This document shows positions 1 to 62,817 of a stretch of DNA of 64,000 nt, in pieces (positions within the stretch are counted from its first letter, which is position 1; every line of letters begins with the position of its first letter). The stretch is from Eledone cirrhosa. Taxonomy: Eukaryota. The stretch is taken from assembly GCA_964016885.1 (NCBI GenBank), contig CAXHJY010000740.1, positions 1 to 64,000 of the forward strand, written 5' to 3'. Below the pieces are notes generated by a model. It ran no database searches, had not been told where the DNA came from, and worked only from the letters and a program-made list of their open reading frames with translations. The position numbers were made by a program, and so were the translations under genes.

Positions 1-1991
1 CCCTGCTTCCAGGTTTGGAATTTATTCTCTAGTTCTACCATAGATTCAGCTATGAGTGCGAGGTCATCAGCATACAGGAGTTCCCATGGGCATCCGGTCT
101 TAAACTCCTCCGTTATTGCCTGCAGGACTATGATGAACAGGAGAGGGCTAAGAACAGAGCCCTGGTGGACCCCAACCTGTACGCTAAATTCCTCGCTATA
201 CTCATTGCCAATCCTAACTTTGCTGACTGCTCCCCTATACATGGCTTGTACCGCTTTCACAAGCCATTCATCTACTCCTAGTTTTCTAAGAGCCCACCAG
301 ATTACTGCACGTGGAACTCTGTCAAAGGCTTTCTCAAGGTCGACAAATGCCAAGTAGAGTGGCTTACTTTTAGCTAGGTACTTTTCCTGTAATTGCCTCA
401 CAAGGAAGAGCGCATCAGTGGTGCCTTTCCCTGGTACAAACCCAAATTGCATCTCGTCTATATTCACCCGGTCCCTAATCAGCTGTGCTATAACTCTTTC
501 TGTTACTTTCATGACCTGGTCCATCAACTTTATACCTCTATAGTTTCCTCTATCTAGTGCATCGCCTTTACCTTTGTAGCAGTTGACAATGATGCTACTG
601 CACCAATCTTTTGGTATGGCCCCCTCTAGTATTACCTGGTTAACGATACGTGTGGTTATAGTGTGACCTACAGACCCAGATGCCTTCAGCATCTCGGCAG
701 CTATACCCGATGGACCGGTTGCCTTCCCTATCTTCATATCTCTGATTGCCTTACTTACTACGCTGCCGCTGACTTGTACTGCTGGTCCCTCTATAGGGTC
801 TACGTGGGGTAGGGTCTCTTCTTCCCATGCATTCTCCTCATTTAGTAATCTATCATAATGACTCTTCCATGCATCTTTCTTCTCAGCACTTGTGAGGGCA
901 AGCTCACCTTTATCATTCCGGATACACTTCTCTCCAATGACATCACAACTATCTCTGACACACTGCCTCGCAATCTTGAATACCTCCTGTTTCTGGTCCT
1001 CACGTTGTAAAACATGCTTGAATTTTCTATCCTCTGCTTCCCTCCTAGCTAAGTATACTTGTCGCCTAGCTTCCCTCTTGGTCTCTATGTAATGTACCCT
1101 GCTCCCCCCGTTCTTCCATTCTTTCCATGCCTGTCTCTTGGCCTTGACTGCTTCATCTACCTTATTGTTCCACCACCAAGTCACTCTCCTCCTGCTTGAG
1201 GTCTTACTCCAGCCACAAACCTCATCCGTCGCCTCTAGTAAGTTATTTTTTAGGAACTCCCAGTTCTCTTCTACGTTAAATGTCTCTATCTGTTCTTCTT
1301 TACTGTCGTAGGCGTTGAGTAAAATATCTTTAAATCTGTTACTGGTTGAGGGGACTTTCAGCTTCCAGATCTTTCTTCTCCAGGTTGGCCTCTGTTTCAG
1401 GGCTCGTCTAGTTCTGACCGTGAGGTCGCTGACAACTAAGCTATGTTGGGATGTACATTCCTCACTAGGGAAGGCTTTTGTGTTTACGACCGTCCATCTG
1501 TCACGTCCTCTGATGAGGATAAAATCTAACTGACTAGAGTGCTCCCCTGATCTATAGGTGATCAGGTGGTTGTCGGGTTTTTTAAAGTTTGTGTTACATA
1601 TCGACATGTCATTGGCGTCGCAGAATTCTAGAAGTCTGAATCCTTCCTCATTCCTTGTGCCAACTCCATGGCCTCCATGTACTCTATTGAAGCCGTTGCA
1701 GTGTTTACCTACGTGTCCGTTAAAATCTCCTGCAATGATTAGGAAGTCCTTGTCGTCTGTTAGAGCAGTAGTGTGTATTAGGGACTCGTAAAACCTATCC
1801 TTAAGTTCGTCTGGCAGCCCCGATTGGGGTGCGTAAGCTGATATTATTGTGGTAATTGTCTTATTCAGGACTAGTCTGAGTTTAATGATTCTTGCATTTA
1901 CCCTGTACACTGAGATTACTTTATCTACCCACTTGTCAGCTAATAGTATACCTACACCACCCATCCCATCGTCATTTCCCACCCAGAAAAA
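1..1991 (-). CDS. RTE-clade LINE ORF (APE endonuclease + reverse transcriptase), 5'-truncated, runs off the left window edge
   Basis: Manual minus-strand translation gives APE motifs (GVGILL, ISAYAPQ, IIAGDFNGHVG, QLDFIL, SQHSLV) and RT motifs (GVHQGSVLSPLLF, LLYADDL with YADD at 63-74) in the same frame. I saw no stop in the parts translated. The ORF track lists no terminated minus-strand ORF here, consistent with an open frame reaching the edge. Confidence 0.93.
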
Positions 1992-36058: not shown

Positions 36059-36715
36059 ACGTGGTTTAGTGGTTGGGTTGTTTGGTTCACGATCGTAAGG
36101 TCGTGAGTTTGACTACCAAGACCCTTTATTTCACGTTACTCCAGTCCATTGTAGCCTTGAGCAGGACACTTTATTTCACGTTACTCCAGTCCATTGTAGC
36201 CTTGAGCAGGACACTTTATTTCACGTTACTCCAGTCCATTGTAGCCTTGAGCAGGACACTTTATTTCACGTTACTCCAGTCCATTGTAGCCTTGAGCAGG
36301 ACACTTTATTTCACGTTACTCCAGTCCATTGTAGCCTTGAGCAGGACACTTTATTTCACGTTACTCCAGTCCATTGTATCCTTGAACAAGACACTTTTTT
36401 TTCACGTTACTCCAGTCCATTGTATCCTTGAACAAGACACTTTATTTCACGTTACTCCAGTCCATTGTATCCTTGAGCAAGACACTTTATTTCACGTTAC
36501 TCCAGTCCATTGTGTCCTTGAGCAAGACACTTTATTTTACGTTACTCCAGTCCATTGTGTCCTTGAGCAAGACACTTTATTTTCACATTGCTCCAGCCCA
36601 CTCAGTTGGCAAAAATGAGTTGTACCTATAATTCATAGAACCAGTCTTGTCACACACTGCATCATACGGAATCTCCCTGAGAACTACGTAAAGGGTACAT
36701 GTGTCTGTGGAATGC
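36059..36715 (+). mobile_element. tRNA/CORE-type SINE whose central segment is amplified as a 45-bp minisatellite (~10.5 copies, 36118-36600)
   Basis: Head gtggtttagtggtt...cacgatcgtaaggtcgtgagttt. Unit gtagccttgagcaggacactttatttcacgttactccagtccatt. A normal SINE body resumes after 36600. Confidence 0.85.
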
Positions 36716-37745
36716 ATATATATATTTATGTACATATATGTGTGTGTATGTCTATGTTTACGTTTGTGCTTGTATTTGTGTTTAAGGTTCGTAATCTAGA
36801 AGTTCAACAAAAAGAGATCGATAAAATAAGTACCAGACTTGAAAAAAATAAGAGGTCGATAGGATAAGCTAAATCAAAGCAGTGCTCGAGCATGGCCGCA
36901 CTCTAATGGCTGCAACCGGTAAATGAATAAAATAAAAGAATATAGTTTGATATATTAGACAGGAATGTAAAATATCGCAGGGTATATCGTTGGATAGTCG
37001 TAATATCGTCGGATAGAAATACTTCACGGTATTCATTTCGGCTCTCTGAGTTCAAATCTCACCCAGGTCAACTTTGCTTTTCAACTTTCCGAAGTCAATA
37101 AAAATAATAATCTACCAGTCCTATACTGGAGAGGATTCTTCCTTCCTTCAGCCCTCTTTTTCTGATGGGCTCTATCAGGTTTAAAAGGCCTAAGATAGGT
37201 CATGAATCATGACGGAGTCCCTACGATTCTATTGGGAGTTTAGGGGGCAACTGACAGTGATAAGTAAAAATCCCTACTTTTATTTATTGCAATAAAAATA
37301 TATATATGTTATTAAGACAACATACTAAATCTAATGATATTTATAAAATAAACAGTTTTCTTTACTGAACAGTTTTCCATTTTTAAATCTGGCTCATAGA
37401 CAAATTCGAGAGTTTTATTCTTTAACAATAAATGATCTCGTTCCCCCAATCCATACTTAATCTATCGATCATTTTCGATTGTTGCTCTGCAGATTTTTCT
37501 CATTCAGGTTCTCCTAATATATATTTCTTTCATTTTCATATTGCAGATGGAAACATTATTGTAAGACCCTGCCCACAGCAAATATTGATTTATATACTAT
37601 TGCTAGCTCCTACCTTCATCACATCATCTTTCTCTCACCCCTTTCTCTATCTATTTCTCACTCATTCTCTGTGTGTGTGTGTGTGTGTACATACACACAC
37701 ACACACACATATATATATATAATTACATATATATATAGATAGATG

Positions 37746-37796
37746 AGATTCTACAAGACTAGAACTGTTTCATTTTTTAGAAATCATCAGGAATCT
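37746..37796 (-). ncRNA. Type-I hammerhead ribozyme motif with decayed stem II
   Basis: Minus strand AGATTC-CTGATGA-tttctaaaaaat-GAAA-CAGttctagtcTTG-TA-GAATCT. Perfect 6-bp stem I and a GUA site. Adjacent to (TA)n. Confidence 0.6.
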
Positions 37797-38121
37797 GGCT
37801 TTCCAAAAATAAATGTTGTGGTATTTATATCTTTTCAGGGGGTAGGAGAGGGTGGGAGGTGGGATGTGTGGAGGTCATTGGTTGAAAGAAAAGGGAATTC
37901 ATTAAAAGCTGTAGAATATTTCATAAGAAAAATGGAAAACCAAGGTCTGGCAGAAATCGTCCTTGGTTTTCCATTTTTCTCATGACAGGCGGAATGAACT
38001 GGGGCCCAGAACTCAACGAAACTTGAATACCTGTTTATGTCACTGTTGTAATTATTTATACTAAACTCGTCCTATGGACTAAGTACTCTTACTCTTGGAT
38101 ATTTCCACTTAACTTTTACCT

Positions 38122-38152
<31 letters not shown>

Positions 38153-38157
38153 ATACG

Positions 38158-38435
38158 ACTTTTTTTAGAATAGTAATAATAATATTCGAATCGTTTGCAA
38201 TTATGCAAACAAGCCTCATTTTTAAAGCCATGTCAGTAGAATGAACCTCTCATTCTTGCTCTTGTGTTGGCATGTAAACAGAACTGCAAGCACTAATGTT
38301 TCTGGGTATTACCCTTCATCAGTATAGTTCACTGTTCACCTGCCAACTGTCAGAGCTAGAGAACATATATGATTTTTGTAAAATATACAGTGACTGGTCG
38401 GCTTGATTTGCATATTAGCAGACTGGCTACTAATT

Positions 38436-38440
<5 letters not shown>
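38158..38440 (-). mobile_element. Penelope-like pLTR remnant with a degenerate hammerhead-like core (38281-38330)
   Basis: Minus strand actata-CTGATGA-agggt-aat-accca-GAAAC-att. The segment 38160-38256 is homologous to the palindrome arms at 54684-54886. Confidence 0.55.
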
Positions 38441-38465
<25 letters not shown>

Positions 38466-38471
<6 letters not shown>

Positions 38472-38680
38472 AATGAGTGAAAAAAAACACGGATCGAGTG
38501 TACAGCCGATCCGTGTTATTCTTAAGTCATTTACTATTATTACTCCAAGAACCGCCTACCTAGGAACTGTCTTGAATCGGCCACCCTAACACCACAACTA
38601 TTTAAACTTCTTGTTGAGCCAAAGAACACCGAAAGTTAAAACTATCCTCGATACAGAGTACTCATAACCCCTACTTGGAT
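38466..38680. mobile_element. Degenerate fold-back element (~30-bp arms) next to (TA)n
   Basis: tagtaaatga...aacacggatcg pairs with cgatccgtgtt...tcatttacta. Confidence 0.55.
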
Positions 38681-41151: not shown

Positions 41152-41344
41152 ATAGGAACCAGTAAGACCCCGACGGCTGAGCTCAAGCTGTTTCGACGGC
41201 TAATTCTGTCCAGAATTAGCCGTCGAAACGGCTTGAGCTCAGCCGTCGGGGTCTTACTGGTTCCTATTACCCACTCTACTACCTAAGTATTGAGTACTTT
41301 GGTGCGTTATGGTCCACCTGGTTCCTTACCACATTTCCTTCGTT
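41152..41344 (+). mobile_element. Fold-back element family H1, copy 1: 57-bp arms centred on hammerhead stem II, plus unique tail, inserted in (TA)n
   Basis: Arms 41152-41208 and 41211-41267 with one mismatch. The right arm reads TAGCCGTC-GAAA-CGGCT-tgagctc-AGCCG-TC-GGGG. Confidence 0.85.
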
Positions 41345-41354
41345 ATATATATAT

Positions 41355-41575
41355 ATATTGTTATACTTGGGGAGGCTCATATTTGTGTAATATTGCCAGA
41401 ATTAATAACAGAACACACTCACTGTTTGGTTGGTTTTCGCTTCTGTGTCTTTTATATCAGTAATCTAATTTATTCGGTCCTCAACGTTGCCATTGACTGA
41501 CCAACGGTAAAAAATAATACAGATACAATATTTGTTTCGACACACGATTTCATATCAAAAACCTCGCAAAACTAT
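41355..41575. mobile_element. (TA)n-anchored pLTR-like repeat, family H2
   Basis: 41355-41522 matches 53833-54009 inverted. 41525-41574 is the inverted copy of 42047-42096. Confidence 0.75.
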
Positions 41576-41819: not shown

Positions 41820-42046
41820 GAGAAGAAAGAAGAATACTGCGTGGTTTGCACATGGGTTACATATGATAAAATTAGTCCCTCGTCAGTGATTTGCCAACCA
41901 TCATTGGTATTTCATCGCATTAAAAATCATATACCTCAGGTTGGTGCGAGCAATAACTAAAAAAAGCTATTGGGACAAGTAAATCGCGTAAAGCGAGTGA
42001 GACAAGTAAACAACATAGAAGGATAAATATATATATATATATATAT

Positions 42047-42152
42047 TAGTTTTGCGAGGTTTTTGATATGAAATCGTGTGTCGAAACAGATATTGTTATA
42101 CTTGGGGAGGGTCATATTACAACAATAATACCCTCCCCAAGTATAACAATAT
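42047..42152 (+). mobile_element. Family H2 fragment with hammerhead 3' half and a 23-bp-arm hairpin
   Basis: gtgtc-GAAA-CAgatatTG-TT. atattgttatacttggggagggt pairs with accctccccaagtataacaatat. Confidence 0.65.
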
Positions 42153-42170
42153 ATATATAGATTCCATGTT

Positions 42171-42236
42171 ATTCTTTCTGACGACTGAAGACAGACATAA
42201 ATATATCTGTCTTCAAGAAACCACTGGTAAATGAAT
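42171..42236 (+). ncRNA. Type-I hammerhead ribozyme
   Basis: ATTCTTT-CTGACGA-cTGAAGACAGA..TCTGTCTTCAa-GAAA-CCAcTGG-TA-AATGAAT. All core nucleotides are present, and the predicted cut is after 42229. Confidence 0.85.
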
Positions 42237-42247
42237 TATCTTATGTT

Positions 42248-44779: not shown

Positions 44780-45682
44780 GGAGTTGCAGCATAGAGTTAC
44801 GGCTCTTTACGGTCTAAGTTCAAATCCCACCGAGGTTAACTTTGCCTATCATCCTGACGGGGGTCGATAAAATAAAGTACCAGTAATGCACTGGGGTTAT
44901 TGCTGGCCTTGTACCAAAAATAGAAACAATTGTATATTTGAATTTAATCATACAAATGAATATAAAACTGTGATTATTTAAAGTTCAGTAATTGTTTCTA
45001 CTTTTGGCACAAGGCCAGCAATTATCCCAGTGTATTACTGGTACTTTATTTTATCGACCCTGTAAGGATGAAAAGCAAAGTTAACCTCGGCGGGATTTGA
45101 ACTTAGTTCGTAAAGGGACGTAACTGTGCTACAAAGCATGGCGCCCGACCCTCTACCGATACTGCGACTCTTTTAGGCGGTTATCTAGTTCACCTGTACA
45201 ACTCTCCTATATTACCGCTTTTTTTCCAACGAACGTTCCCTTTGTCTACTATCAACTACACACCCGACAATATTTAAGTTTTCATTCATAATTGTTTCTA
45301 CTTTAGGCACAAGGCCAGCAATTACCCAGTGCATTACTGGTACTTTTCATTCATAAGATCCAATCGTTTGATTTGCTAAACATAGCATTTCAATTTCGCC
45401 ACAAACACATGCCATTATCCTGAAATAAAGACATATTGCATCATATTATTTTACCTGCCGAGGTTAACTTTGCCTTTCATCCTTACGGGGTCGATAAAAT
45501 AAAGTACCAGTAATGTACTGGGTAATTGCTGGCCTTGTACCAAAAGTAGAAACAATTATTTTACCTGAGTTCAAATCCCGTCGAGGTTAACTTTGCCTTT
45601 TATCCTTACGGGACCGATAAAATAAAGTACCAGTAATGCACTGGGATAATTGCTGGCCTTGTGCCAAAAGTAGAAACAATTA
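44780..45682. mobile_element. Cluster of five family-A SINE copies: 44780-44932 (+), 44989-45166 (-), 45289-45347 (-), 45456-45560 (+), 45565-45682 (+)
   Basis: Shared sequence and shared ...gtagaaacaatt ends. Confidence 0.85.
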
Positions 45683-47426: not shown

Positions 47427-47832
47427 TGTGTTCTTAGAGACTGCTACTTCATGTCTGGCTGTGTCTGTGGCCGATAAGGTGGGAACCAGTAAGGCCAGGA
47501 GAGAGAGAGATATAGAGTAAAATGTCTGCTACATCGTGAACCTTAACACGGACTGCTTGCTTCGGTCTCCCTGGTCCCCAGATTCCTTAACTCCTTGTAT
47601 TTATAATAGTGCTATAGTTAGAAGGATGTGTATATGAAGTTGATTTATGATCAGCCAAATGGATATCGTCTCCCCAACAAGCTGGGATCAGGGGTCAAGT
47701 GGTATGTACGTTTATCATCCTTGACTTGACAGGTCAATGGTGGGAAATTCCCCATAATGGGTGGTTTCAGATAGGAGAACTCTTAGATTCGGTTTCGAAT
47801 CTTCGCCGGGTAATTTATAGGAGAATTCCATT

Positions 47833-49472
47833 ACAGATCTTTCAATGTCTTCGATCACAGATCTTTCAATGTCTTCGATCACAGATCTTTCAATGTCTTC
47901 GATCACTGATCTTCCAATGTCTTCCATCACAGATCTTCCAATGTCTTCCATCATAGATCTTTCAATGTCTTCCATCATAGATCTTTCAATGTCTTCCATC
48001 ATAGATCTTTCAATGTCTTCCATCATAGATCTTTCAATGTCTTCGATCACAGATCTTCCAATGTCTTCCATCATAGATCTTTCAATGTCTTCCATCATAG
48101 ATCTTCCAATGTCTTCCATCATAGATCTTTCAATGTCTTCGGTCATAGATCTTTCAATGTCTTCGGTCATAGATCTTTCAATGTCTTCCATCATAGATCT
48201 TCCAATGTCTTCCATCATAGATCTTTCAATGTCTTCGGTCATAGATCTTCCAATATCTTCGATCATATATCTTCCAATACCTTCGATCATAAATCTTTCA
48301 ATGTCTTCCATCATAAATCTTTCAATGTCTTCCATCATAGATCTTTAAATGTCTTCCATCATAGATCTTTCAATGTCTTCGATCACAGATCTTTCAATGT
48401 CTTCGATCACAGATCTTTCAATGTCTTCGATCACAGATCTTTCAATGTCTTCGATCACAGATCTTTCAATGTCTTCGATCACAGATCTTTCAATGTCTTC
48501 GATCACAGATCTTTCAATGTCTTCGATCACAGATCTTTCAATGTCTTCGATCACAGATCTTTCAATGTCTTCGATCACAGATCTTTCAATGTCTTCCATC
48601 ATAGATCTTTCAATGTCTTCGATCACAGATCTTCCAATGTCTTCCATCATAGATCTTCCAATGTCTTCCATCATAGATCTTTCAATGTCTTCCATCATAG
48701 ATCTTTCAATGTCTTCCATCATAGATCTTTCAATGTCTTCCATCATAGATCTTCCAATGTCTTCCATCATAGATCTTTCAATGTCTTCCATCATAGATCT
48801 TCCAATGTCTTCCATCATAGATCTTTCAATGTCTTCGATCACAGATCTTTCAATGTCTTCGATCACAGATCTTCCAATGTCTTCCATCATAGATCTTCCA
48901 ATGTCTTCCATCATAGATCTTTCAATGTCTTCCATCATAGATCTTTCAATGTCTTCCATCATAGATCTTCCAATGTCTTCCATCATAGATCTTTCAATGT
49001 CTTCCATCATAGATCTTTCAATGTCTTCCATCATAGATCTTTCAATGTCTTCCATCATAGATCTTTCAATGTCTTCCATCATAGATCTTCCAATGTCTTC
49101 CATCATAGATCTTTCAATGTCTTCGATCACAGATCTTCCAATGTCTTCCATCATAGATCTTTCAATGTCTTCCATCATAGATCTTCCAATGTCTTCCATC
49201 ATAGATCTTCCAATGTCTTCCATCATAGATCTTCCAATGTCTTCCATCATAGATCTTTCAATGTCTTCGGTCATAGATCTTTCAATGTCTTCCATCATAG
49301 ATCTTCCAATGTCTTCCATCACAGATCTTCCAATGTCTTCCATCATAGATCTTTCAATGTCTTCCATCATAGATCTTTCAATGTCTTCGGTCATAGATCT
49401 TCCAATATCTTCGATCATATATCTTCCAATACCTTCGATCATAAATCTTTCAATGTCTCTGGTCATAGATCT
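47833..49472. repeat. 24-bp minisatellite (~68 copies, ATGTCTTCSATCAYAGATCTTYCA)
   Basis: 8-aa periodicity in the ORF track. A variant block is repeated at an offset of 1152 bp (48 units). Confidence 0.97.
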
Positions 49473-51447: not shown

Positions 51448-51449
<2 letters not shown>

Positions 51450-51632
51450 CGAAGGAAGTGTCGTAAGGAACCAGGTGGACCATAACGCACCAGAGTACTC
51501 GATACTTTGGGTAGTAGAGTGGGTAATAGGAAAAGGCTCAGGACCCCGACGGCAGATCTCAAGCTGTTTCGACGGATAGAAAAATAGCCGTCGAAACGGC
51601 TTGAGCTCTGCCGTCAGAGTCCTGAACCTTTT

Positions 51633-51637
<5 letters not shown>
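51448..51637 (-). mobile_element. Fold-back element family H1, copy 2, inside (TA)n
   Basis: Same tail as 41268-41344, inverted. Hairpin at 51526-51637. Confidence 0.85.
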
Positions 51638-52141: not shown

Positions 52142-52552
52142 TTAGTTACGTTCATACACATAACAAGAGCGTTAACTATGGATTCAAGTTCCAATATTGA
52201 CCATATCTCCAGAATATAAGAGGGGGGTCAACATTTTAACCCGTCTTTAGGCGCTTATACGAATTTATACACACATACACATATGTATGTATGTAGGTGT
52301 GCGTGTGCGAGTGCGTGTGCGTGTGCGTGTGTGTGTGTGTGTGCAGGCACTCGATCTGCTAAAAACAGCACATAAATCATACCTAAGTAACAAGAGGAAG
52401 CACACGGTCATATCTCTGGGGTTAAAACGTTCGCTTGGTAGCCTCATCGTTTCAGGCTTGAGCCCTCTGCACGACCCCTTGGTCAAATAACTTAGCATCG
52501 ATTTGACCAATAACTTGTGAGCGCATGCAACCCCACTCAGTACACACACACA

Positions 52553-52729
52553 AAGCTGGACCATAACGCACCAGAGTACTCGATACTTAGGGTAGTAGGG
52601 TGGGTAATAGGAAAAGAGTCGGGACCCCGACGGCTGAGCTCCAGCCGTTTTGACAGCTAGATCCTCAGTTCGTATCTAGCTGTCGAAACGGCCGGAGCTC
52701 AGCCGTCGGGGTCCCGACTCTTTTCCTAT
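52553..52729 (-). mobile_element. Fold-back element family H1, copy 3
   Basis: Same tail. Hairpin at 52607-52729 with a different loop and different distal arm sequence. Confidence 0.85.
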
Positions 52730-53332
52730 ATATATATATACTGAGTGGGGTTGCATGCACAAGTGTACGCAGGTGAGTGCGTGTATATATTTACATGTAT
52801 GTATTTATGAAAACAGGCTTGTATTACACCTGTAATAGCTTTCCGGCTAATAAAATGGACAGCTAAGAATAAATGTTGATTGTAAGAAGATGATTAGATA
52901 ATTAGTATTAACTATGCCAATATCTAACTAACAGAATGGGTTCTTCATAATTTGTTGGCCATGGATACAGTGCTAGCAACGAGTATCGCTGTATTAAATG
53001 AGAGAAGGAATGAAGTGGAAGATTTTACCGCAGGTTTATTTTACGCTAGACTGCTAATAGGTTCGGCAATTGAGCTAAATATATCATCTCACATTTTTAT
53101 TTTATTTTTTTTTAAATACATTTTTGTCTGATTTTCCAAAAGATTTCCGAAGCGAATTCCACAATTAGAATTTTGATTGCATTATGAACTCTTAAGTTTT
53201 GATACCATCGTAGGTGGTGGGTGTAATTACATACGGACATTTATGCCTGGTGGAGCCCATCTCCCTCAAGGTCAGAACACCCGATTTCTCCCAGAGAAAG
53301 ATAAGAGAGCAAATATTAACACCCAGTAGTAG

Positions 53333-53360
53333 ACAGGTACTTTACTTATCGCCCTCAATG

Positions 53361-53400
<40 letters not shown>

Positions 53401-53424
53401 CATTGAGGGCGATAAGTAAAGTAC

Positions 53425-53428
<4 letters not shown>
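53333..53428. repeat. Perfect palindrome: 31-bp arms around (TA)n
   Basis: acaggtactttacttatcgccctcaatgaat-(TA)n-attcattgagggcgataagtaaagtacctgt. Confidence 0.95.
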
Positions 53429-53461
<33 letters not shown>

Positions 53462-53832
53462 TGTCTAGAACTTAGAAGGCCAAGGCTAAACAGAAAGAAT
53501 GAATGGAATAACAACAACACCCAAACAAACAACACTGACCTAAGAGAAGTATAAATAAATAAATACATACACAAGCACAATAACAACAAACACATATAAA
53601 CACACACTAGTAAAGATAGAATACATTAACCAATACACAGTTACCCAATCACGAACACTATACACACACGCAAACGCATGCACAAAGAAGACAAAATAAA
53701 ATAAACAAATAAATAAATATATAAACAGATTAAATAAAGATGGCGTAGAAAATACAATGTAACGGGAGGAAACAATAGCACCACTGGCGATGTTGCAGAT
53801 GTGCAACGAAAGAACTTTGATAAACTATATAT

Positions 53833-54005
53833 ATGTGTATTATTTTTGACCGTTGGTCAGTCAATGGCAACATTGAAGACCGAATAAATTAGATTACCGA
53901 TATAAAAGACACAGAAGCGAAAAGCGAAAACCAACCAAACAGTGAGTGTATTCTGTTATTAATTCTGGCAATGTTACACAAATATGACCCTCCTCAAGTA
54001 TAACA

Positions 54006-54095: not shown

Positions 54096-54423
54096 ATCAT
54101 CATCATCATTTTACGTCCGCTTTTCCCTGCTTGCAAGGGTGGGACGGGAACTGATTCTGGCTTGATTTCTACAGCTGGATGCCCTTCCTAACACCAACCT
54201 CATTTACAGTGAGTGCTGGATGCTTTTTTCTGTGGCACCTCCACGACCACTTTTGCAGTGGAATGATAGGGATCCCAGTCCCTCTTATCTCATTTCTACA
54301 GCTGAGTAAACTGGAGCAATGTGAAATAAAATGTCTTGCTCAAGGAAACAACACATCACCCGGTTGAACTCACAACCTTTCGATTGCAAGGCCAATGCTC
54401 TAACCACTAAGCCATGTGCCTCC
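54096..54423 (-). mobile_element. Full-length tRNA/CORE-type SINE with RTE-derived 3' end and (GAT)n tail
   Basis: Head ggaggcacatggcttagtggttagagc. 54096-54250 matches the RTE 3' UTR at 2005-2270. Confidence 0.88.
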
Positions 54424-54435
54424 ATACACACATAC

Positions 54436-54466
<31 letters not shown>

Positions 54467-54683
54467 TACACACATATATATATATGTATATATACATATA
54501 TACACACACATATATATATATGTATATATACATATATACACACACATATATATATATGTATATATACATATATACACATATACATATATAGACACATATA
54601 TATGTATATATACATATATACACATATAGACACATATATATGTATATATACATATATACACACATATATACATGTATACATAC

Positions 54684-54925
54684 ATAAATGTAATTTGAGT
54701 TTTTCGAATATTAATAATAACATTCGTTACGTTTGCAATTATACAAACAAGTCTCAATTGTATAGCCATGTCAATAGAATGAACACTTCATTCTATTGAC
54801 ATGGCTATAAAATTGAGACTTGTTTGTATAATTGCAAACGTAACGAATGTTATTATTAATATTCGAAAAACTCAGATTACATTTATTGTATTCAGCCACC
54901 TAGAGTGAAATTTTCTTTTTTACAT
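54684..54925 (+). mobile_element. Fold-back element with 100-bp arms in TA/CA microsatellite
   Basis: Arms 54684-54783 and 54787-54886 with two mismatches and a 3-nt loop. Confidence 0.9.
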
Positions 54926-54946
54926 ATATACATACATATTTACATC

Positions 54947-55014
<68 letters not shown>

Positions 55015-55074
55015 CATATATATGCATATATACAATATATTAACAAATGGAAACTATATTTATAAAACCATATT

Positions 55075-55139
55075 TATTTCATTATACATATTTCAAGGAC
55101 ACCAAAGCAAATTATGGTGCGCTTTCATCAGATAAAATA
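55075..55139 (-). ncRNA. Type-I hammerhead ribozyme
   Basis: Minus strand ATTTTAT-CTGATGA-AAGcgCACCA..TGGTGtcCTT-GAAA-TATGTA-TA-ATGAAAT, with an AUA site. Confidence 0.8.
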
Positions 55140-55321
55140 TAATATAGATCAGTTTTATAAACAAATATTGACAAATCCCTTAAAGAATGCTTCCAACCGA
55201 CATGGTCGCATATATGTGTGTGTATATATATATATACATATATATATATATACAGATATATATATACATATATATCTACATATATATATATACACATACA
55301 TATACATATATATATATATAA

Positions 55322-55366
<45 letters not shown>

Positions 55367-55521
55367 CATATTTATTTACGTATAGCACGGAGTATATGTG
55401 CATAAACACACATGCACCGTGTTGTATTATGACAGTATTGTGTTAGCTCAATGTACAGGAACTGAGCCGTTATATGAAAAAGAAACCAAAGAACGCTTAC
55501 GTACTCAAACAGCTTTTATTT

Positions 55522-55566
55522 GCTTACAATGTTTCATCCACACCGTTTGGTAGGAATCCTCAGAGC
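55522..55566 (-). ncRNA. Minimal type-I hammerhead ribozyme
   Basis: Minus strand GCT-CTGAGGA-tTCCTACCaaacGGTGtGGAt-GAAA-CAtTG-TA-AGC, with a GUA site. Confidence 0.7.
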
Positions 55567-55927
55567 TTAATAAACACAGTGTTGAGTATAAGCTCCACAA
55601 AGCCTAGTCACACGAACAATCGGAATGCAATAGATGGTAAAGATAGGGAGATAGGAGATGGCGAACAAGGAGGGGGTACATGCTGGGGTTGTTAAGCACC
55701 ACAGCTAAATGCCAGGGCACAAGCAGATTTTACAAGATGCGGGTACAATTGATGGTACACAAAAGCAAAATATACAGGCAATGGTTAAAACATAATAAAA
55801 ATTAATAATAAAATAATTAAAAAAATATGAAAATAAAAGGAAGATAATATAAAGAGATAAAAAGTAAAAAGGTCAAATATTAAAAAAAATTTTTTTTTTT
55901 TAAAAGAGAGAAATAAAAACAGAAATA

Positions 55928-56359: not shown

Positions 56360-56742
56360 AAACTGTTGAAGTGCAGAAATGCTATAAAGATAATTGTTTC
56401 TACTTTAGGCACAAGGCCAGCAATTACCCAGTGCATTACTGGTACTTTATTTTATCGACCCCGTAAGGATGAAAGGCAAAGTCAACCTCGGCGGGATTTG
56501 AACTCAGATTGTAAAGGGACGTAACTATGCTGGAAAGCATGGCGTTCGACCCTCTACCGATATAAAGATAACATAGAATAATGTGAAGCCTTTTAAAAGA
56601 CGGCAAAATAAGTTTCCCTCGGCTGCTATGAGGTGGGCTCAATTCCTCATAAAGACCAATGGCAACTTCTTTTTCCGTCTTTTAAGAGTCTTCACCCTAT
56701 TTTATAAGCATTTTATAGCATTTCTGCGCTTCATCACTTTTT
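56360..56742. mobile_element. Degenerate palindromic MITE-like element interrupted by a family-A SINE (56391-56562, minus)
   Basis: tgaagtgcagaaatgctataaa pairs with tttatagcatttctgcgcttca. The SINE is flanked by the direct repeat tataaagataa (56383-56393 and 56561-56571). Confidence 0.7.
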
Positions 56743-57700: not shown

Positions 57701-58098
57701 TATGTAGGAGGTGAGTTTTATTGTAGTACAATAAAGCAATGCAGATATCGGATAAGAAGCACTCTACAGTTTGTAGGACTGGAGTATACATAATATATAA
57801 GATCAAAAGATGGTTAAATGAGTTCCATGTATTTTATATATGTTGATTTAAAACTGCACTATCCACAAGTGTTTTTTAGCCTTCATATCATGTCCTACTG
57901 TTTTATCTGATGAAAACACAAATATTATTGCATGATGATATTTGTTTTTGAAATGCGCATAATAAAATACATGGAACTCCTTTAACCATCTTTTGTTCTT
58001 ATATATTATGTATACTCCAGTCCCACAAACTGTACAGTGCTTCTTATCCGATATCTGCATTGCTTTATTGTACTACAATAAAACTCACCTCCTACATA
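57701..58098. mobile_element. Inverted-repeat element (137-bp arms) enclosing a hammerhead, in (TA)n; Penelope-like inverted pLTR
   Basis: Arms 57701-57837 and 57962-58098 with about four mismatches. Confidence 0.88.
57901..57967 (+). ncRNA. Intact type-I hammerhead ribozyme
   Basis: TTTTAT-CTGATGA-AAAcACAAATATTATT..GATGATATTTGTtTTT-GAAA-TGCGCA-TA-ATAAAA. Palindromic stem III ATGCGCAT, predicted cut at 57961/57962. Confidence 0.9.
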
Positions 58099-58812: not shown

Positions 58813-60395
58813 AGGGCACACATCTGTAGGGCAGGGGTATACGTCAAACAATTGGTTCAGGATCACACATCTGTAAGGCAGGGGTATACGTCAAACAATT
58901 GGTTCAGGACCACACATCTGTAAAGCAGGGGTATACATCAAACAATTGGTTCAGGACCACACATCTGTAAAGCAGGGGTATACGTCAAACAATTGGTTCA
59001 AGACCACACATCTGTAAGGCAGGGGTATACGTCAAACAATTGGTACAGGACCTCACATATGTAAGGCAGGGGTATACGTCAAACAATTGGTACAGGACCT
59101 CACATATGTAAGGCAGGGGTATACGTCAAACAATTGGTTCAGGACCACACATCTGTAAAGCGGGGGTATACGTCAAACAATTGGTTCAAGACCACACATC
59201 TGTAAGGCAGGGGTATACGTCAAACAATTGGTACAGGACCTCACATCTGTAAGGCAGGGGTATACGTCAAACAATTGGTACAGGACCTCACATCTGTAAG
59301 GCAGGGGTATACGTCAAACAATTGGTACAGGACCTCACATATGTAAGGCAGGGGTATACGTCAAACAATTGGTTCAGGACCACACATCTGTAAGGCAGGG
59401 GTATACGTCAAACAATTGGTACAGGACCTCACATATGTAAGGCAGGGGTATACGTCAAACAATTGGTACAGGACCTCACATATGTAAGGCAGGGGTATAC
59501 GTCAAACAATTGGTACAGGACCACACATCTGTAAGGCCGGGGTATACGTCAAACAATTGGTACAGGACCTCACATATGTAAGGCAGGGGTATACGTCAAA
59601 CAATTGGTACAGGACCTCACATATGTAAGGCAGGGGTATACGTCAAACAATTGGTACAGGACCTCACATATGTAAGGCAGGGGTATACGTCAAACAATTG
59701 GTACAGGACCTCACATCTGTAAGGCAGGGGTATACGTCAAACAATTGGTACAGGACCTCACATATGTAAGGCAGGGGTATACGTCAAACAATTGGTTCAG
59801 GACCACACATCTGTAAGGCAGGGGTATACGTCAAACAATTGGTACAGGACCTCACATATGTAAGGCAGGGGTATACGTCAAACAATTGGTACAGGACCTC
59901 ACATATGTAAGGCAGGGGTATACGTCAAACAATTGGTACAGGACCTCACATATGTAAGGCAGGGGTATACGTCAAACAATTGGTACAGGACCTCACATCT
60001 GTAAGGCAGGGGTATACGTCAAACAATTGGCACAGGACCACACATCTGTAGGGCAGGGCCATACATCAAACAATTAGCACAGGACCACACATCTGAAGGG
60101 CAGGGGCATACATCAAATTGGCACAGGACGGGTATACGTCAACTGAGTCAACAAATTGGCACAGGGTCACACATGTAGGGCAGGGGTATACGTCAAACAA
60201 TTAGCACGGGGCCACATATTTGTAGGGCAGGGGTATACATCAAACAATTGGCACGGGGCCACACATCTGAAGGGCAGGGGTATACGTCAACTGAGTCAAC
60301 CAATTGACACAGGGTCACACATGTAGGGCAGGGGTATACGTCAAACTATTGGCACGGGGTCACATATTTGTAGGGCAGGGCTATACGTCAACTGG
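58813..60395. repeat. 47-bp minisatellite (~33 copies, GGGGTATACGTCAAACAATTGGTACAGGACCTCACATATGTAAGGCA)
   Basis: Directly visible, degenerate at the right end. Confidence 0.97.
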
Positions 60396-62237: not shown

Positions 62238-62817
62238 TAATTAGTGACAACACAACAAAGGCATATAGGAACTATACATATGTTTATCATGTATAAAAAC
62301 ATACTGTGTATAGATCTATATACATCTGTATTCTGAACCACGCTGTGTTAGTGGCATCGCTAGTTATATTATCTAAAGTATTTTTTAAAAAAGTACTTTA
62401 GATGGGTGTGATTTTAGGAAGATTTGACTGCTATTTATAGTAGATGGAGCGAGTGCATAGTGGCTTCTTATGAGTTTTTCTACAGTTTTGACCTCTAATC
62501 CTACTATCGATCTCAATAGAGATCAATAATCAATAGGGATGATCATACATTGACCAGTGCATCTGATAAGGACAACAAAAAATATATCGATTCGTTCTAT
62601 TTATCACACTTGCATCAAGTAGACATTGATTGATTGATTGATTGATTGATTGATAATCGATATTTAAATCAGGATATTAAAGTAGCTTTATTGAATATAT
62701 TAGACCCAGATTTTAGATTTAGGAATAAATTCTTGACATCGTAAAAGAATCGATAAGTCTCCATTGGTGTTAAATCTGAACATCTCATTCATCTTCAATT
62801 AGTATTTCACTCTAAAT

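Follow-up and report, generated by a model that had tools for sequence, protein, structure and literature searches.

A palindrome with 100-nucleotide arms and a tail on one side interrupts a microsatellite in the genome of Eledone cirrhosa. Its anatomy suggests that it is likely the inserted, truncated end of a Penelope-like element (PLE): a pseudo-LTR (pLTR), probably non-autonomous. A PLE-type origin can be proposed with good confidence. The mechanism favored here, to which a probability of about 0.55 is assigned, is that reverse transcription started twice on the element RNA, and that the two products were joined at the element's own hairpin.

The insertion lies within a 64,000-nucleotide stretch of one contig (the window), which is repeat-rich, eukaryote-like, and studded with satellites and microsatellites. 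An unfolded relative of the palindrome lies in the same window. A folded copy beside its unfolded relative constitutes a clean natural test case: the palindrome at the junction existed beforehand.

Inverted copies, self-primed junction palindromes, and one-sided tails are already known for PLEs. The snap-back event inferred in a first-pass annotation stands in part: the structure does come from one arm at a pre-existing hairpin, but such self-priming had already been published for these elements.

The palindrome and its unfolded relative

The palindrome is real, and well beyond chance. Its arms are complementary at 98 of 100 positions, with a 3-nucleotide spacer, and the DNA fold reaches −105.5 kcal/mol (z −28.6), a stability equaled by none of 200 shuffles. 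The insertion and its flanks comprise:

54421 to 54683, unstranded: left flank, an AT/CA microsatellite, CA-rich on the plus strand (CA 36, TG 7)
54684 to 54783, minus: left, tail-less arm, 100 nucleotides; sense (minus) judged from the relative's hammerhead core
54776 to 54794, unstranded: axis, an 8-bp stem with a 3-nucleotide loop, the homolog of native hairpin 38238-38256; loop orientation weakly favors the left arm
54787 to 54886, plus: right, tail-bearing arm, 100 nucleotides; sense on plus
54887 to 54923, plus: one-sided extension (the tail), 37 nucleotides, a single copy in the window
54924 to 55040, unstranded: right flank, the same microsatellite in the same polarity (CA 22, TG 1, counted in 54926-55040)

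The two flanks are alike in being rich in CA on the plus strand; therefore, a single microsatellite has been interrupted, and neither flank is inverted. The left end of the palindrome shares about 5 nucleotides of microhomology with the microsatellite. Because the site is inside a microsatellite, no target-site duplication, an optional feature of PLEs, can be called. The right side had been described as an inverted copy. The arm is indeed inverted, but the right side continues through the tail, which has no counterpart on the left side or at 38 kb.

The relative at 38 kb, together with the structures discussed below, comprises:

38154 to 38439, minus: non-palindromic relative, about 290 nucleotides, between (TA)n and (CA)n; tail-less 3′ end; structured as RNA (z −4.6)
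38193 to 38210, minus: second native 7-bp hairpin, not the axis
38238 to 38256, minus: native hairpin, 7 bp with a 5-nucleotide loop, centered at 38247; −4.4 kcal/mol as the cDNA strand
38266 to 38347, minus: outer stem around the core, 38266-38281 paired with 38332-38347 (16 nucleotides, 88%), likely an extended helix I
38299 to 38322, minus: hammerhead-like core, consisting of CTGATGA, a single unpaired base, a 4-bp helix II, an additional base, and GAAA; decayed around the cleavage site

Positions 54700-54794 align with 38162-38256 without gaps (84.2% over 95 nucleotides, E 8e-25), so the homology first claimed between the arms and 38160-38256 is borne out. Within this alignment the axis, at 54785, maps exactly to 38247, the center of a perfect native 7-bp hairpin. 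Perfect stems of at least 6 bp occur at only 2 of the 567 possible axes in 38152-38439, the palindrome axis being one of them. The first-pass annotation was thus right to see a small native hairpin at this point of the relative, and the coincidence of axis with pre-existing hairpin, which it proposed to look for, is found at 54 kb as judged against the 38-kb copy. At their tail-less ends, the two loci stop at corresponding positions, to within about 7 nucleotides.

The two arms are 2% apart from each other, and 13-16% from the relative. Over 84 aligned bases, 11 differences from the 38-kb copy are common to both arms, against one difference of arm from arm. These shared differences mean that both arms descend from one arm. 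As read from the sequences, one arm was the source from which the palindrome was made, or homogenized, at a time when the two lineages had already diverged.

Searches of the window (nhmmer with both loci; blastn) yielded no third copy of this family, and no direct repeat of either locus, whether a head-to-tail tandem or a direct pLTR. A 22-nucleotide family motif had no matches in genome contigs, and a search of phages gave no match; those collections are prokaryotic or phage, so these blanks say little. The 38-kb copy has at its 5′ end (38429-38537) a (TA)n run between 10-nucleotide inverted repeats, followed by an imperfect hairpin with 36-bp arms.

Hammerhead-like cores and the Penelope-like assignment

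The 38-kb motif is probably a decayed hammerhead, unproven, to judge from its sequence. The relative had been said to run into a hammerhead-like core at 38281-38330; the core is real, but it lies on the minus strand (38322-38299) and is decayed. It is located 168 nucleotides from the 3′ end of the relative, it lacks helix I at the cleavage site, and the hammerhead is not the minimum-energy fold of this copy. Rfam yielded no hammerhead match in the whole window or in two sub-regions. (Its miRNA and snoRNA matches, on microsatellites or hairpins, scored below the gathering thresholds and were rejected.) A hammerhead descriptor made two hits in the non-satellite parts, compared with an average of 0.36 in shuffled sequence (two were reached in 4 of 200 shuffles); with helix I required, it made none. 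This strict descriptor missed cores at 57907 and 55131 that a loose scan picked up. The features listed for minimal PLE hammerheads in PMC4209133 include the two core boxes, the unpaired base, and the 4-bp helix II.

Other cores of this kind are present in the window. Directly after a palindrome of another family (family N, described below) is a well-formed candidate type I hammerhead (42168-42240, plus strand), with a 10-bp helix II, a short helix III, and an imperfect helix I. The same microsatellite tract that holds the 54-kb insertion also holds, about 110 nucleotides to the right of the tail, a hammerhead-like fragment (55030-55210, minus strand; core 55131-55091) with a short hairpin at its 5′ end; it resembles the core at 57.9 kb. 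Weaker cores are found at 37790-37768 (minus; within 37715-37985) and 55563-55532 (minus; within 55495-55600), and a hairpin with 25-bp arms occupies 37921-37985.

As described in PMC8557442, PLEs have an inverted, 5′-truncated copy, a tail of 30-40 bp at either end, and microsatellite targets. Hammerheads are within the pLTRs of canonical PLEs, and the formation of the inverted repeats and tails is called still undefined. PMC3846280 reports a 31-bp tail, along with palindromes of 18 and 38 bp at pLTR 5′ ends. Inverted pLTRs and short 3′ extensions serve as curation features in PMC8969392. (PMC13282606 and bioRxiv 10.64898/2026.07.22.740005 provide context only.)

It is this published anatomy that suggests the PLE-type reading. 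The 54-kb insertion contains an inverted, 5′-truncated, head-to-head copy (oriented by the relative's hammerhead core); a palindrome at the inverted junction, with its axis on a native hairpin; and a one-sided tail, whose 37 nucleotides are seen in one copy only. Because the tail is seen once, we infer its origin in the element. Where a pLTR hammerhead would be expected, near the 3′ end, the relative retains the core boxes and a 4-bp helix II, but not helix I at the cleavage site, and Rfam sees no hammerhead. Finally, both loci sit in microsatellites, matching the AT-rich or microsatellite targets of PLEs.

Pfam detected neither PLE reverse transcriptase (RT) nor GIY-YIG domains in 58 open reading frames (57 of the 163 listed, plus one); it found LINE domains only, plus three weak matches below cut-off. 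The 41-residue frame of the right arm has no related protein among the protein representatives. With no PLE domain found, only anatomy ties the insertion to a PLE protein, and it is not filed as an autonomous PLE. One frame open in both copies was considered as coding and set aside: about 2 of 10 changes are silent (hand count), with no sign of constraint. In the PMC8557442 supplement, where line breaks may hide matches, four of seven DNA motifs of the family were absent; the remaining three occurred at 10 places, and none of the six inspected resembles the family. On the favored reading the element is selfish debris, and no role in the host is implied.

The LINE itself (3-1991, minus strand) is a 663-residue open frame with AP-endonuclease and RT domains that runs off the window; its RT is the only one found. 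Units of 50 bp make up a 30-kb satellite (3338-33364) that shows signs of higher-order structure; further satellites have units of 45 bp (36117-36596), 24 bp (47826-49458), and 47 bp (58819-60391). About a dozen copies of an abundant family, which we take to be SINE-like, are scattered over 33832-62045, and the 45-bp satellite resembles one such stretch at 54289-54351.

Tails, loops, and routes to a palindrome

Three other groups of insertions in the window bear on how the 54-kb palindrome formed: the family probably meant by H1 in the first-pass annotation, family N, and a single case at 57.7 kb.

41152 to 41343, unstranded: likely H1, a palindrome plus a 76-nucleotide tail; other copies at 51449-51637 and 52554-52729
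41359 to 41574, unstranded: family N, a tail-less copy of about 165 nucleotides, head-to-head with about 8 nucleotides plus the tail
42046 to 42152, unstranded: family N palindrome, 29-nucleotide arms (27/29), 44-nucleotide one-sided tail, loop with the tail-less arm
53832 to 54005, plus: family N, unfolded tail-less copy
57706 to 58093: palindrome with arms of about 133 nucleotides, no tail

The arm-plus-tail form thus recurs in family N and in all three H1 copies, in keeping with the earlier claim that one mechanism operates in unrelated families. The axis at 42 kb aligns to a native 5-bp hairpin, which is the only perfect stem of at least 5 bp among 325 axes of the unfolded sequence (41359-41525). 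This hairpin is weak (−0.5 kcal/mol), and is imperfect in the 53832-54005 copy. The three H1 palindromes have a common tail, of 76 nucleotides in the two full copies (longer than the published PLE range of 30-40 bp) and shortened in the third. Their arms match at 49, 44, and 48 of 50 positions within copies, and each of the 12 between-copy pairs matches at 39-41 of 50; therefore, the palindrome was remade at each insertion, or homogenized. By inspection, and with no unfolded copy to compare, the H1 arm resembles a hammerhead's 3′ half, in which case the H1 axis would fall on helix II. At 57.7 kb, the spacer contains a hammerhead core (57907-57953, plus strand) with a long helix II, and the inverted arm stops at 57837, equivalent to 57962, the first base past the predicted cleavage site.

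Several inverted structures stand apart from these groups. The 52.6-kb H1 copy is flanked by an inverted repeat (52523-52555 and 52726-52758; 33 nucleotides and 82% including simple repeats, about 19 nucleotides of it unique sequence). A perfect palindrome with 48-bp arms (53333-53428) is centered on (TA)n, with (TA)n past one arm and unique sequence past the other; it possibly represents the same architecture with a microsatellite as axis. Older or shorter palindromes are located at 56573-56705 (74% over 136 nucleotides) and 62371-62403 (91% over 33 nucleotides). One inverted repeat (44795-45125) was set aside: it is two copies, presumably SINE-like, joined tail-to-tail with B-box-like motifs facing inward.

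The proposed sequence of events is as follows. PLE endonuclease and RT, acting in trans, would cut both strands of an AT-rich target. One cut end would prime cDNA at the tail end of the RNA; the other would prime about 37 nucleotides further in, at the tail-less start. The tail-less cDNA would traverse the hairpin, and its self-complementary 3′ end would pair with a matching 7-8 nucleotides, either in the other cDNA or in its own strand; in the latter case it would fold back and then switch to the tail cDNA. Extension and host repair would then seal a perfect inverted repeat with a tail on one side. The joining step may well be a snap-back, as first thought, followed by that switch. However, a single snap-back does not account for the whole: fold-back of the loop strand cannot template the 37-nucleotide tail, and a cDNA primed at the tail end should leave the loop in the other orientation.

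Loop orientation was scored in the two palindromes that allow it (2/2), and is complemented by one structure, 41359-41574; the three H1 copies and the 57.7-kb case lie outside this sample. At 54 kb the loop goes with the tail-less arm by a score of 14 versus 11 (a naive likelihood ratio of about 21, from 5 nucleotides and one relative 16% away). At 42 kb it does so clearly, by 9 versus 3 and 7 versus 1. In 41359-41574, a long tail-less arm meets a tail that is nearly bare. Neither this structure nor the loop orientation is predicted by one cDNA begun at the tail end, whereas two RT starts predict both; two starts are the simplest fit. The length of the tail at 54 kb, 37 nucleotides, compares with the 30-40 bp (PMC8557442) and 31 bp (PMC3846280) published.

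The published reading of palindromes at inverted junctions, proposed in 2013 for rotifer Penelopes (PMC3846280), is self-priming; applied here, the 3′ end of an antisense transcript of the same type of element would fold back at the hairpin. This also predicts a loop with the tail-less arm, as seen at 54 and 42 kb. It does not readily give 41359-41574, in which hardly any arm is duplicated, and the inverted arm of 57706-58093 stops just past the predicted cleavage site of the sense RNA; moreover, RT begins in vitro on sense RNA, at two sites bounding the tail (PMC11167929). Antisense self-priming is therefore rather unlikely, yet a live competitor. The simple form of snap-back, closest to the first-pass annotation, needs one primer only: a tail-primed cDNA would fold at the hairpin, copy itself, and be cut or stop 37 nucleotides short. 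The stability of the hairpin as cDNA, the microhomology at the left end, and the ascription of tails to endonuclease resolution (PMC8557442) all suit it. Yet it predicts an antisense loop on the tail-first strand, whereas the observed loops point the other way, weakly so at 54 kb but clearly at 42 kb, and it permits no tail-less arm longer than the tailed arm, contrary to 41359-41574; this makes it distinctly unlikely.

A further alternative needs no RT. DNA breaks are known to be repaired by fold-back at short inverted repeats, and a break in the AT microsatellite beside an already inserted single-arm element could have been mended later in this way at the hairpin; the AT-repeat flanks and the left-end microhomology are in keeping with this. 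Against it, the inverted arm stops 37 nucleotides inside the element, near the end of an independent copy; no flank is duplicated at 54 kb; and the arm-plus-tail form recurs in two other families, including all three H1 copies. Later repair is thus quite improbable. Still less probable is a family of hairpin MITEs or foldback DNA transposons whose consensus is palindromic, the 38-kb copy being a chimera of one arm and an unrelated hammerhead fragment, the circumstance that the first-pass annotation named as fatal to its own reading. Only two loci are available to judge by, and within the 38-kb copy the duplex energy between its hammerhead half and its arm half is not significant (127 of 1000 shuffles). 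However, those halves share a complementary stretch of 20/24 (7 of 2000 shuffles; nhmmer E 0.004), and the whole folds as one unit would. The relative has one arm, the arms at 54 kb are far closer to each other than to it, and the 54-kb termini are asymmetric, with a 37-nucleotide overhang on one side, unlike the terminal inverted repeats, with target duplication, that bound such transposons at either end. Finally, inverted PLE structures do trouble assemblies (PMC8557442), and a fold-back read could produce a palindrome by artefact. This is scarcely credible here: two sites differ between the arms, symmetry ends where the element does, neither flank is inverted, and the axis is on a biologically pre-existing hairpin.

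Two RT starts joined at a hairpin thus remain the preferred account of the 54-kb insertion. That tailed PLE palindromes in general record twin priming, with one RT start on each side of the tail, one at each cut end of the target, and the leading, tail-less cDNA joined to the other at a native hairpin, is a more tentative proposition. If true, loop orientation, together with an arm that stops at the hammerhead cleavage site (one case), would provide a genome-readable rule for the inverted repeats and tails of PLEs. Neither a loop-orientation test nor a twin-priming model for PLEs was found in the literature searched, which mostly excluded subscription papers. Candidate mechanisms can be told apart by how the loop is oriented with respect to the tail, a feature open to counting in any genome rich in repeats. 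If transcribed, such inserts would yield double-stranded RNA of 100 bp, and they may be misfiled as MITEs.

Likeness to known systems

In L1 twin priming, two primers act on one RNA to produce an inverted segment; the 5′ part is inverted, not duplicated. The structure at 41359-41574 looks like such a product. In the PLE case, both primers would start near the 3′ end, and therefore the copied stretch is duplicated, unlike in L1.

Minimal type I hammerheads of metazoan PLEs (PMC4209133) and non-LTR retrozymes (bioRxiv 10.64898/2026.07.22.740005) have the CUGAUGA and GAAA boxes seen at 38 kb. Also in common are the unpaired base before helix II, a G-C first pair, and a structured, non-coding unit of about 290 nucleotides. 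Unlike these, the 38-kb copy has an extra base before GAAA, and its helix I and cleavage site are broken. It is not tandem: TRF detected no array at 38 kb of the kind found in non-LTR retrozymes, only a single unit. Naiad PLEs (PMC8557442) share (TA)n targets, inverted copies, and a tail; they are without canonical hammerheads.

Poseidon PAc of Anolis (PMC11167929) resembles the model for the 54-kb insertion in several respects: two RT starts bound the tail; the purified PLE cuts and extends both strands of AT-rich target DNA; and a hammerhead is upstream of the start sites. Inverted products were not reconstituted in that work, and the likeness drawn here is one of anatomy.

The endonuclease-bearing Penelope-like elements Pen2a, Pen2, and Pen3a of Adineta vaga (PMC3846280; scheme in PMC8557442) share with the 54-kb insertion a head-to-head inverted, 5′-truncated copy, a junction palindrome, a 30-40 bp tail on one end, and an AT-rich or microsatellite target. 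The 54-kb insertion differs in having neither an open reading frame nor a direct pLTR. Both of its copies are cut at one hairpin about 100 nucleotides from the 3′ end, and so the insert consists of palindrome plus tail only. It differs also in that its unfolded relative shows the hairpin to be native.
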